Assembly (NCBI GenBank): GCA_964361405.1 | Contig: CAYIAA010000001.1 | Span: forward strand, 84,917 to 148,916 | Direction of reading: 5' to 3' | Length of the DNA stretch: 64,000 nt | Origin: an uncultured Candidatus Saccharibacteria bacterium | GTDB taxonomy: Bacteria; Patescibacteriota; Minisyncoccia; Phycocordibacterales; UBA3531 | Part shown: piece by piece, positions 24,076-25,684 of the stretch | Layout: each line of letters begins with the position of its first letter | Position numbering within the stretch: position 1 is the first letter of the stretch | Program-made: the position numbers and the translations under genes | Notes under the pieces: generated by a model | What the model saw: the letters and a program-made list of their open reading frames with translations, nothing else | Told to the model about the DNA's origin: nothing | The model's database searches: none

Positions 24076-24969
24076 ATGGCTAATCGGCATTTAGCGCGGA
24101 GTATAGTTCTGCAATCTCTCTTTGAGTGGGACTTCAAAGAGGGTAAAGACGCGAACATTTCGTTTATCGTTGAGAATAACGCGCATGAGTTTGGTCCGGG
24201 ACTCCCCGACATTTTGTTCGTGAGGTCGCTCGTGGAGAGCATCATGAAAAAACGGGAAAAGCTCGATGCCGTTATTGAGAGTTCCGCCCCGGAGTGGCCA
24301 ATCGACCGCATTTCCATAGTGGATAGAAATGTGCTCCGCATCGGGCTCTACGAGCTTCTGTATGCGGACCGAGCCGAAGTTCCGGCAAAAGTAGCCATTA
24401 ACGAAGCTATTGAACTCGCAAAGACATTCGGCGGGGAAAATAGCGGCAGATTCATTAACGGAGTGCTCGGCACCGTTTACAAGGAACTCGGAGAGCCGGG
24501 GAAAGATGAACGCGGCAAGCGCACCCTAGAAGATCCATCAAAGATGCCGCGAGAGATCCTCGGTGGAGCTCTCGTGTATCGGCATATCACGGGCGGCGGG
24601 GTTATGGTAGCCTTGGTGCACGATGTTTTCGGGTATTGGACCCTCTCGAAAGGTCACATTGAATCCGAAGAGGACGAGCGCATGGGAGCCGCTCGGGAAA
24701 TACGTGAAGAGCTCGGCGTCGATGTTACGATTGGAGAGAAGATAGGAGAAAACGAATACACGGCGTCCGATCCGGAAAAAGGGAAGCTCCGCAAGCATGT
24801 TTCGTACTTTTTAGCCGAAACCCAGGATACCGAGCTCAAACTTCACTCTGGAGGGGGACTCGTCGAGGCAAAATGGTTTTCACTCGATGATCTCTCCGAC
24901 CTTAAAATTTATGATGACATTCTCCCTATTATCACTACCGGAGTGAAAATGTTGTTCTCTCATCCTTAA
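24076..24969 (+). CDS. nusB: fusion protein: NusB antitermination factor (N-terminal) plus NUDIX hydrolase (C-terminal)
   Basis: [31 protein letters not shown] is near-identical to the E. coli NusB core. The C-terminus has a perfect Nudix box [23 protein letters not shown] (GX5EX7REUXEEXGU). Confidence 0.8.
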   Translation: [297 protein letters not shown]

Positions 24970-24982
24970 TCTATTCGCCGCC

Positions 24983-25684
24983 ATGCACAGTGAAGTCAGT
25001 CTGAATGAGTTTGAAAAAAAAATAAGCATCACATTCAAAAATAAGGATTTACTTCTTCAAGCCTTTACGCACCGATCATACTTGAATGAGCATCCGGAAT
25101 CGCGAATTCGTGACAATGAACGCCTTGAGTTTCTCGGAGACGCCGTACTTGAGCTCGCTACCACGACGTTTCTCTATGATCGTTTCACCGATAAAGCCGA
25201 AGGAGAGTTGACGGGGCTTCGGGCGGCATTGGTGAATACCCGCCAGCTTGCGGTGTGTGCTCGGGAGTTGGGGTTGAACGGTTACCTCCGTCTCTCGCGC
25301 GGAGAGATGAGGGATGAGGGCCGCGCTCGGGATGTTATTTTGGCAAACGCGCTTGAGGCACTTCTCGGGGCAATTTATCTCGATCAAGGATACGGAGCGG
25401 CACGCGATTTTATCGCGGTGGAGCTCTTCGGGCGTATTGACGACATTGTGACGCGAGGGCTCTGGCTTGACCCGAAGAGCCGTTTTCAAGAGCGTGCGCA
25501 AGAGATATTTGGACTGACGCCGAGTTACCGGGTACTCCGCGAGTCGGGCCCCGATCATTCGAAACAATTTACCGTGGGATTATTTCTTGGCGAAGAGGAA
25601 GTTGCACAGGGTATCGGAAGTTCAAAACAGGAGGCCGAAGAATACGCCGCGCGCGAAGGGCTTATACGAAAGAGTTGGACCTAA
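24983..25684 (+). CDS. rnc: ribonuclease III
   Basis: ERLEFLGDAVLEL RNase III signature plus C-terminal dsRBD. Confidence 0.9.
   Translation: MHSEVSLNEFEKKISITFKNKDLLLQAFTHRSYLNEHPESRIRDNERLEFLGDAVLELATTTFLYDRFTDKAEGELTGLRAALVNTRQLAVCARELGLNGYLRLSRGEMRDEGRARDVILANALEALLGAIYLDQGYGAARDFIAVELFGRIDDIVTRGLWLDPKSRFQERAQEIFGLTPSYRVLRESGPDHSKQFTVGLFLGEEEVAQGIGSSKQEAEEYAAREGLIRKSWT

Follow-up and report, generated by a model that had tools for sequence, protein, structure and literature searches.

A NusB-Nudix fusion of the Parcubacteria with a well-conserved nucleotide pocket and an often degenerate catalytic box

What does a Nudix domain do at the end of an antitermination factor? The question is raised by a gene in a 64,000-nucleotide (nt) stretch of a contig from an uncultured Candidatus Saccharibacteria bacterium (CAYIAA010000001.1 of assembly GCA_964361405.1, positions 84,917 to 148,916), the whole of which is referred to here as the window. 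NusB is a universal and much-studied factor in the transcription of ribosomal RNA (rRNA) and a drug target. Together with ribosomal protein S10, it binds boxA in the rRNA leader and remains on RNA polymerase (RNAP). In the window, nusB continues in frame into a Nudix domain and is followed by rnc, the gene for RNase III. A preliminary description, made from the sequence, proposed that such a protein couples binding of the rRNA leader to processing of its 5′ end.

The fusion occupies positions 24076-24969 of the forward strand as one unbroken open reading frame (ORF) of 297 amino acids (aa) and a stop codon. Pfam assigns residues 7-136 to NusB (PF01029, 113.5 bits) and residues 186-277 to NUDIX (PF00293, 56.6 bits), and the NCBIfam equivalog for NusB, TIGR01951, scores 124.8 bits against a cutoff of 88.35. 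The preliminary description had placed NusB at about residues 1-140, citing a peptide that corresponds to residues 102-132, and a Nudix domain with a perfect Nudix box at about residues 170-297; both assignments hold, with domain limits of 1-138 and 159-297. The box, G193-HIESE-E199-DERMGAA-R207-E208-I-R-E211-E212-L-G214-V215, is an exact match to the consensus GX5EX7REUXEEXGU. Both domains are confidently predicted in an AlphaFold2 (AF2) model, with a mean predicted local distance difference test score (pLDDT) of 84.8. As residues 140-152 have a pLDDT below 50 and the predicted template modelling score (pTM) is 0.51, the modelled fusion is best described as two beads on a flexible tether, lacking a defined mutual orientation. 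The tether starts with Y135-x-E137-x-GEPGK, a motif that is invariant in a 41-sequence alignment of main-clade matches. Its GEPGK portion (residues 139-143, positions 24490-24504) lies at the NusB-Nudix junction, inside the low-confidence and presumably flexible linker; the GEP core is kept in 250 of 279 fusions and is gone from divergent ones.

The possibility, raised in the preliminary description, that a sequencing or assembly frameshift had joined two genes is rejected outright, the same single ORF being found in thousands of independent assemblies from NCBI, JGI, ENA and Logan. The covalent fusion is real: the 120 best homologues, 59-90% identical and 293-342 aa long, all carry both Pfam domains. 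A profile built from divergent members retrieves 5,098 clusters (90% identity level) at E ≤ 1e-10, again from mainstream Paceibacterota. On conservation across lineages of the candidate phyla radiation, a check suggested in that description, confirmed loci are present in at least 598 species-representative genomes. The best 80 of these loci all encode full-length fusions and span Kaiser-, Lloyd-, Nomura-, Adler-, Giovannoni-, Vogel-, Yonath-, Zambryski-, Taylor- and Niyogibacteria as well as unclassified Paceibacterota/Parcubacteria. Kaiserbacteria and Nomurabacteria, the two named groups checked in the NCBI taxonomy, are separate candidate phyla in the Parcubacteria group of Patescibacteria. 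Each half of the protein belongs to a well-known family, and the combination of NusB with a Nudix domain of the diadenosine tetraphosphate (Ap4A) type is present in thousands of database entries; where the source gives a name it is "NusB" only, a public annotation that hides the extra domain. The literature on NusB, Nudix, fusion, Patescibacteria and CT771, with the relevance of co-mentions judged by title, yielded no paper describing a NusB-Nudix architecture, in agreement with the earlier impression that it had not been characterized.

A few relatives depart from this architecture. A candidate for a natural split of the fusion (P0123, 149 aa, starting with "MGEP") was rejected as a contig-end fragment, the upstream frame reading "...GTVYREMGEP". 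P0150 is a true standalone relative, and its 1-kb contig is uninformative. Rare long variants carry a sub-threshold cold-shock-like (CSD-like) N-terminus ahead of NusB-Nudix (P0204, 577 aa) or a sub-threshold Rho_N/SAP-like tail behind it (P0166).

The N-terminal half is, by sequence, the genuine NusB of the lineage. It matches NusB of Thermotoga, Escherichia coli, Aquifex and Mycobacterium at E = 1e-14 to 1e-21, and Foldseek places its AlphaFold model on Aquifex NusB from the NusB-NusE-boxA crystal with a template modelling (TM) score of 0.88 and a root-mean-square deviation (rmsd) of 2.0 Å. Models of the methyltransferase RsmB match the NusB part only (at most 49.9 bits, cutoffs at least 269), and no methyltransferase domain is found. 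The boxA contacts of NusB lie in helix α6 (K101-E106), the E117/D118 loop and helix α7; F122 stacks on boxA U8, and an F122D mutant is defective (PMC3177189). Among 280 aligned sequences, the stacking phenylalanine (F126, E. coli F122) is present in 279, with one gap, and the α6 residues K105, N109 and E110 (E. coli K101, N105 and E106) are present in 264 (plus 13 with Arg), 268 and 275, respectively. The NusE-interface pocket of NusB is formed by E81, Y18 and E75 (PMC9820117). In a sequence-level comparison, the counterpart of E81 is D83 in 277 of the 280 and that of E75 is D/E77 in 248, while the Y18 position holds Phe (F16), which loses the hydroxyl, in 261 and Tyr in 16. The D118 equivalent in the window protein is Asn, as in the high-affinity NusB101 allele. 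The determinants for binding RNA and S10 hence appear intact. In E. coli NusB, the residues most affected by mutation of the 5′-most nucleotide of boxA (U1C) are K101 and K139, the latter at the very C-terminus (PMC3177189), suggesting that the point of fusion is turned toward the 5′ side of boxA.

The Nudix half belongs with the hydrolases of Ap4A and other dinucleoside polyphosphates by sequence and fold. Its nearest solved relatives by sequence in the Protein Data Bank (PDB) are Chlamydia CT771 (E = 7.5e-9), human NUDT2, the Caenorhabditis elegans Ap4A hydrolase, Thermus Ndx1 and Aquifex aq_158 (these four at 1e-5 to 1e-6), and mycobacterial MutT1. The top Foldseek matches are aq_158 (TM 0.89), M. 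smegmatis MutT1, M. tuberculosis Rv2985, labelled "Nudix diadenosine polyphosphatase", CT771 with Ap4A products, Ndx1 and NUDT2. The clade is narrow, as an exhaustive search with the Nudix half alone matches only 142 of 1.84 billion cluster representatives at E ≤ 1e-10. Mapping with HMMER equates K192 with NUDT2 K42, E208 with E58, E211/E212 with E61/E62, Y228 with Y82, Y279 with F128 (and with C. elegans Y121), and W188-T189 with W38-T39; E58 is the residue altered in PDB entry 4ijx, "Ap4A hydrolase E58A mutant". Lys42 and Tyr82 are the residues that bind the P1 phosphate in Ap4A hydrolases, where the adenine stacks between Tyr82 and Phe128 (PMC4734340, PMC2425470). A Tyr/Phe ∼17 residues after the box is a feature of the clade; Y228 is only 13 residues after it because the intervening loop is shorter.

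This placement bears on the analogy with RppH and NudC drawn in the preliminary description, which, taken as family membership, fails. If the Nudix half were an RNA pyrophosphohydrolase or deNADding enzyme of the RppH or NudC type, it would share the superfamily and the perfect box, and NudC and Dcp2 do appear in the fold list, far down and with high rmsd (7-8 Å for NudC). The RppH equivalog (NF001938) scores 15.8 bits against a cutoff of 116 and that of NudC (NF001299) 17.3 against 158; RppH is absent from the PDB sequence matches, the best matches are Ap4A hydrolases, and neither the N-terminal domain nor the zinc-binding motif of NudC is present. An enzyme of either type is therefore highly improbable.

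P0158, a free-standing relative of 150 aa with a perfect box (locus L081, 6001-6453), sits among phage-integrase-like, DNA methylase and Rep_O-like genes, probably on a mobile or phage-like element. A phage origin was considered and rejected as a lead, as a scan of viral contigs gave only generic Nudix matches of 31-33% identity.

The clearest pattern emerges when the pocket and the catalytic box are compared across the family. The comparison set comprises 279 full-length fusions, the window protein included; they are not phylogenetically independent, and two of their three sources, being lists of best hits, favour the main clade. In this set, the pocket and core positions are nearly invariant, with W188 in 279, K192 in 278, an aromatic residue at 228 in 277, Y/F244 in 279 and an aromatic residue at 279 in 278. 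The basic loop K235/K237/R239/K240 is largely kept, K240 being present in 265 of the 280 aligned sequences (plus 10 with Arg). A perfect G-E-RE-EE box is present in only 156 of the 279. The loss of catalytic glutamates in orthologues, which the preliminary description regarded as an argument against activity, applies to part of the family: the full set of four acidic residues survives in 170 fusions, and 31 have lost at least two of them. The substitutions vary from sequence to sequence (GERSQE, GMLEKE, GKRKEE, GERVEK, GLAIDK), which points to repeated, independent losses. The fusions with degenerate boxes occupy the same slot between rpmF and rnc and are hence orthologues; P0259 (box GLAIDK), in which NUDIX is undetected by Pfam, has an unchanged domain length, and P0173, which carries E212K, shows a sub-threshold match to NUDIX_2, the Pfam family of CFIm25. 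The window's own clade is mostly intact, with E212 in 100%, E211 in 95% and E208 in 80% of the 121 closest sequences.

Free-standing relatives from the exhaustive search with the Nudix half, 31-41% identical to the query, serve as a control, and all 26 have a perfect box. The only four imperfect entries in their list are fusion fragments, as was shown for P0123 and P0124 and as we infer for P0134 and P0139 because both start at the conserved internal "MP.E". Among cluster representatives at 50% identity, the perfect box is present in 6/38 fused and 26/26 free proteins (Fisher p = 3e-12); across all sequences, the comparison of 156/279 with 26/26 gives p = 8e-7. On these alignments, constraint on the nucleotide pocket exceeds that on catalysis, and it does so in the fused form only. 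The coupled 5′-end processing activity proposed earlier thus stays plausible for the window protein, while the loss of catalytic glutamates in many orthologues means that it cannot be the universally selected function.

The same contrast speaks to the suggestion that nothing couples the two halves mechanistically, a neighbouring housekeeping Ap4A hydrolase gene having fused to nusB in a streamlined genome and the halves acting independently. Genome reduction favours fusions, the model predicts independent beads on a flexible linker, and the box of the window protein is perfect. A housekeeping hydrolase, however, should not tolerate the losses seen in the fused representatives and in none of the free relatives. 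The length of the fusion is constant across orthologues only 30-40% identical, even where the NUDIX match is lost, GEPGK at the junction does not vary within the main clade, and no natural split was found. An uncoupled fusion is accordingly quite unlikely. The absence of catalysis from many orthologues might instead suit a Nudix domain that serves the antitermination complex chiefly as a structural or protein-binding part, its pocket a relic. In the E. coli rRNA transcription antitermination complex (rrnTAC), SuhB, which has the fold of a metabolic enzyme, is an integral part and is reported to be needed for rrnTAC stability and RNase III processing (PMC6614797, PMC6614801). A relic pocket would not stay 99-100% conserved at K192, Y228 and Y279, and no partner interface was identified, so this role is very unlikely.

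We favour, tentatively and as something short of probable, the reading that NusB keeps a module for binding nucleotide polyphosphates close to the nascent RNA that it holds at boxA. The module would most plausibly engage the triphosphate (ppp) or dinucleoside tetraphosphate (Np4N)-capped 5′ end of this RNA and would usually also be hydrolytic, as in the window protein. The NusB half, with S10, would bind boxA in the nascent rRNA leader and stay on RNAP, as is known for NusB. The Nudix domain, hanging from the NusB C-terminus, would then be positioned next to the RNA, 5′ of boxA. Its pocket, which includes the basic loop 235-240, would bind a nucleotide-polyphosphate moiety, with Lys192 holding the terminal phosphate and Tyr228 and Tyr279 clamping the purine. 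The most plausible such moiety is the 5′ end, triphosphorylated or Np4N-capped, of the transcript held by NusB. Where the box is intact, as in the window protein and most relatives, the domain would also hydrolyse the 5′ group and render the leader end degradable after RNase III cleavage; in a sizeable minority of orthologues, binding alone would be retained. Retention of the pocket where catalysis is lost would place selection mainly on recognition and tethering, not turnover. The chemistry has precedents, as pppRNA and caps are substrates of NUDT2, and Np4N caps are removed by both RppH and ApaH (PMC9283932). With the rrnTAC assembled, the leader is looped to RNAP and co-transcriptional cleavage by RNase III rises several-fold (bioRxiv 10.64898/2026.03.17.712431).

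Several findings weigh against this reading. The characterized bacterial members of the clade, CT771, aq_158, Ndx1 and Rv2985, are described as acting on free diadenosine polyphosphates (ApnA), not on RNA, and a free ligand would conserve the pocket residues equally well. The geometry between the domains is undefined in the AF2 model, and the counts come from the interdependent sequences and biased hit lists described above. No rRNA operon or boxA was found in the window or in 101 loci, and no boxA-like motif near the operon: the pattern TGYTCTTTRA has 0 matches in the window (0.87 expected), an Rfam scan of the window returns two tRNAs only, a 16S signature is absent from the 86 loci searched, and the sequences upstream of rpmF and nusB in 72-78 loci, examined by k-mer enrichment and with a boxA-like pattern, reveal nothing beyond coding sequence.

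The ligand may be free Ap4A, another dinucleoside polyphosphate or ATP, which the Nudix domain would sense or hydrolyse, modulating NusB or clearing ApnA locally. Antitermination would in this way respond to stress or to the energy state, and the domain would not touch the RNA 5′ end. The closest characterized relatives all act on free ApnA, and the conserved residues are exactly the Ap4A-binding set. CFIm25, in which two of the four glutamates are gone, binds but does not hydrolyse Ap4A/ATP, and a lost catalysis with a kept pocket is the pattern of such Nudix-derived ligand binders (PMC2425470). P0203, a relative in which sigma70 region 4 and a DnaA-C helix-turn-helix (HTH) are joined to a Nudix domain of the same clade, has RK in place of RE and suggests that the domain can be put to regulatory use. 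Most members, however, including the window protein, keep an intact box and would destroy a signalling ligand; the tethering at the NusB C-terminus beside the 5′ side of boxA is left unexplained, and no allosteric interface is predicted. A free ligand is on balance a possibility on the unlikely side.

A more specific form of RNA recognition is doubtful and a shade less likely still. Here, the Nudix domain would be a reader of RNA 5′ ends or caps that clamps the ppp- or Np4N-bearing first nucleotide of the pre-rRNA onto the NusB/S10/RNAP complex, forming the leader loop, providing stability without SuhB and setting up RNase III cleavage, with hydrolysis as an optional release or licensing step that several lineages abandoned. 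If true, a decaying enzyme would here have become a bacterial "cap-binding" module that is coupled to transcription.

The genomic setting of the fusion is well conserved (Table 1). In the window, the gaps are 37 nt between rpmF and nusB, 13 nt between nusB and rnc and 25 nt between rnc and the smc-like gene. Among the best 80 fusion loci from the scan of species-representative genomes, rpmF lies directly upstream of the fusion in 77, rnc directly downstream on the same strand in 77, and an smc-like gene after rnc in 69; the remoter neighbours are less stable, with rnhB upstream in 52, dnaE in 42 and rnr in 33. In the loci L082, L083 and L084, which hold divergent orthologues, the rpmF-fusion-rnc core is kept and the flanks are wholly different. 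Another locus, L086, stops at the stop codon of the fusion, so that only rnhB and a short unannotated ORF are visible upstream. The position directly upstream of rnc, noted in the preliminary description, is therefore a conserved one, but the adjacency is not specific evidence for a link between Nudix and RNase III. From the gaps of 37 and 13 nt and the conserved order, we infer that rpmF, nusB::nudix and rnc are co-transcribed as a ribosome-biogenesis operon. A promoter and terminator scan of the operon found nothing above the shuffled expectation and did not call the TTGATT/TATAAT candidate because of its 19-nt spacer. The true start of rpmF is likely the ATG at 23766, which follows GGAGG, rather than the listed TTG at 23706.

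Table 1. The fusion gene, its parts and its neighbours, in positions of the window
Feature	Position	Strand	Evidence
rnhB (RNase HII)	23093..23701	+	Pfam RNase_HII 108 bits; NF000595 176 bits
Candidate sigma-70-like promoter, TTGATT-19 nt-TATAAT (TATAAT 23723-23728)	23698..23728	+	By eye; overlaps the end of rnhB
rpmF (L32)	23766..24038	+	Pfam Ribosomal_L32p from residue 26 of the listed ORF
nusB::nudix fusion gene, 297 aa	24076..24969	+	Pfam, NCBIfam, homologues, profile search
NusB domain, residues 1-138, seven helices	24076..24489	+	TIGR01951 above cutoff; AF2 helices 2-138; Foldseek
Flexible linker, residues 139-158 (∼20 aa)	24490..24549	+	AF2 pLDDT; alignment
Nudix domain, residues 159-297, Ap4A-hydrolase/NUDT2-like clade	24550..24966	+	PDB sequence matches; Foldseek
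Nudix box, residues 193-215, perfect consensus in the window protein	24652..24720	+	Sequence
rnc (RNase III)	24983..25684	+	TIGR02191 235.7 bits; 13 nt after the stop codon of the fusion
Short SMC-like ATPase, 740 aa	25710..27932	+	Pfam SMC_N 223 bits

Some features of the surrounding region were recorded in passing. The SMC-like protein is unusually short for an SMC; SMC_N matches at both of its ends, and the Pfam scan gives no hinge-domain match. The listed dnaE ORF (19851-23156, reverse strand), which begins with GTG, shares 64 nt with the start of rnhB. The DnaE PHP-domain motif "MPFIHLHTHSHYS" starts 29 residues in, and the real start is probably that internal ATG, which would leave a short divergent intergenic region between dnaE and rnhB. 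The rest of the window is an ordinary Patescibacteria chromosome with rpsB, pheST, gyrB, thrS, dnaE, rnr, trmD, rpoBC, dnaG and rpoD. At 4318-11539, a low-GC block (0.36-0.39, ∼0.49 elsewhere) begins right behind a tRNA-Thr (4318-4392) and encodes a UDP-glucose dehydrogenase, a GT2 glycosyltransferase with chitin-synthase-like matches, a fusion of heparinase II/III and polysaccharide deacetylase of 1127 aa, and a 313-aa ORF without a Pfam match. It looks like a horizontally acquired polysaccharide island beside a tRNA gene.

The mechanism remains inferential, and domain fusions are not in themselves startling in streamlined genomes. The fusion nevertheless makes a two-domain NusB the standard version in a major bacterial radiation, the Parcubacteria. 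If the Nudix domain engages the 5′ end of the transcript that NusB holds, this would be the first case of 5′-end chemistry, on triphosphates or Np4N caps, wired physically into the antitermination and rRNA-processing machinery, and a natural system for asking about the roles of Np4N caps and Ap4A in bacteria. Whatever the mechanism, the family offers a clean example of an enzyme domain that drifts to a binding-only pseudoenzyme after fusion (perfect box in 26/26 free, 6/38 fused).

By analogy, partial precedents for the fusion can be seen in RsmB, where a NusB-like domain is joined to an rRNA enzyme, and in CFIm25, where an inactive Nudix fold works in an RNA-processing complex. Canonical NusB of E. 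coli, Aquifex and Thermotoga shares with the window protein the fold, the boxA-stacking Phe, the α6 residues and the acidic NusE-pocket residue E81 (D83). It is, however, a single domain of ∼140 aa, to which the window protein adds a C-terminal linker and Nudix domain of 160 residues, along with Phe for Y18, Asn for D118 and a gene position between rpmF and rnc. RsmB/Sun, the 16S rRNA m5C967 methyltransferase, likewise has an N-terminal NusB-like RNA-binding domain and a C-terminal enzyme domain acting on rRNA, but the latter is a SAM methyltransferase, not Nudix, and the NusB half of the window protein is a true equivalog and not an RsmB paralogue.

The Ap4A hydrolases NUDT2, C. elegans Ap4A hydrolase, CT771, aq_158, Ndx1 and Rv2985/MutT1 have in common with the window protein the P1-phosphate Lys, both aromatic residues and the W-T pair. 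They differ in that the window Nudix is fused to a transcription factor and is only 25-28% identical, and in that the catalytic Glu is often gone in the fused family, a loss not seen among the 26 free-standing relatives. With RppH and NudC, the superfamily is shared and the proposed principle is alike, a Nudix pocket acting on an RNA 5′ polyphosphate or cap, with RppH also removing Np4N caps; the window protein belongs to neither family, its HMM scores being far under the cutoffs and the fold matches distant. SuhB in the E. coli rRNA antitermination complex shows a phosphatase-type metabolic enzyme fold recruited to a NusB-containing complex that promotes RNase III processing. Its inositol monophosphatase fold, separate polypeptide and dimeric state are unlike the Nudix half. 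CFIm25/NUDT21, a factor in eukaryotic pre-mRNA 3′ processing, resembles the orthologues with degenerate boxes as a Nudix fold in an RNA-processing complex from which two of the four catalytic glutamates are gone. It is a eukaryotic dimer that lacks a fused NusB and has no established close homology to the fusion, and the window protein, unlike it, keeps a perfect box.

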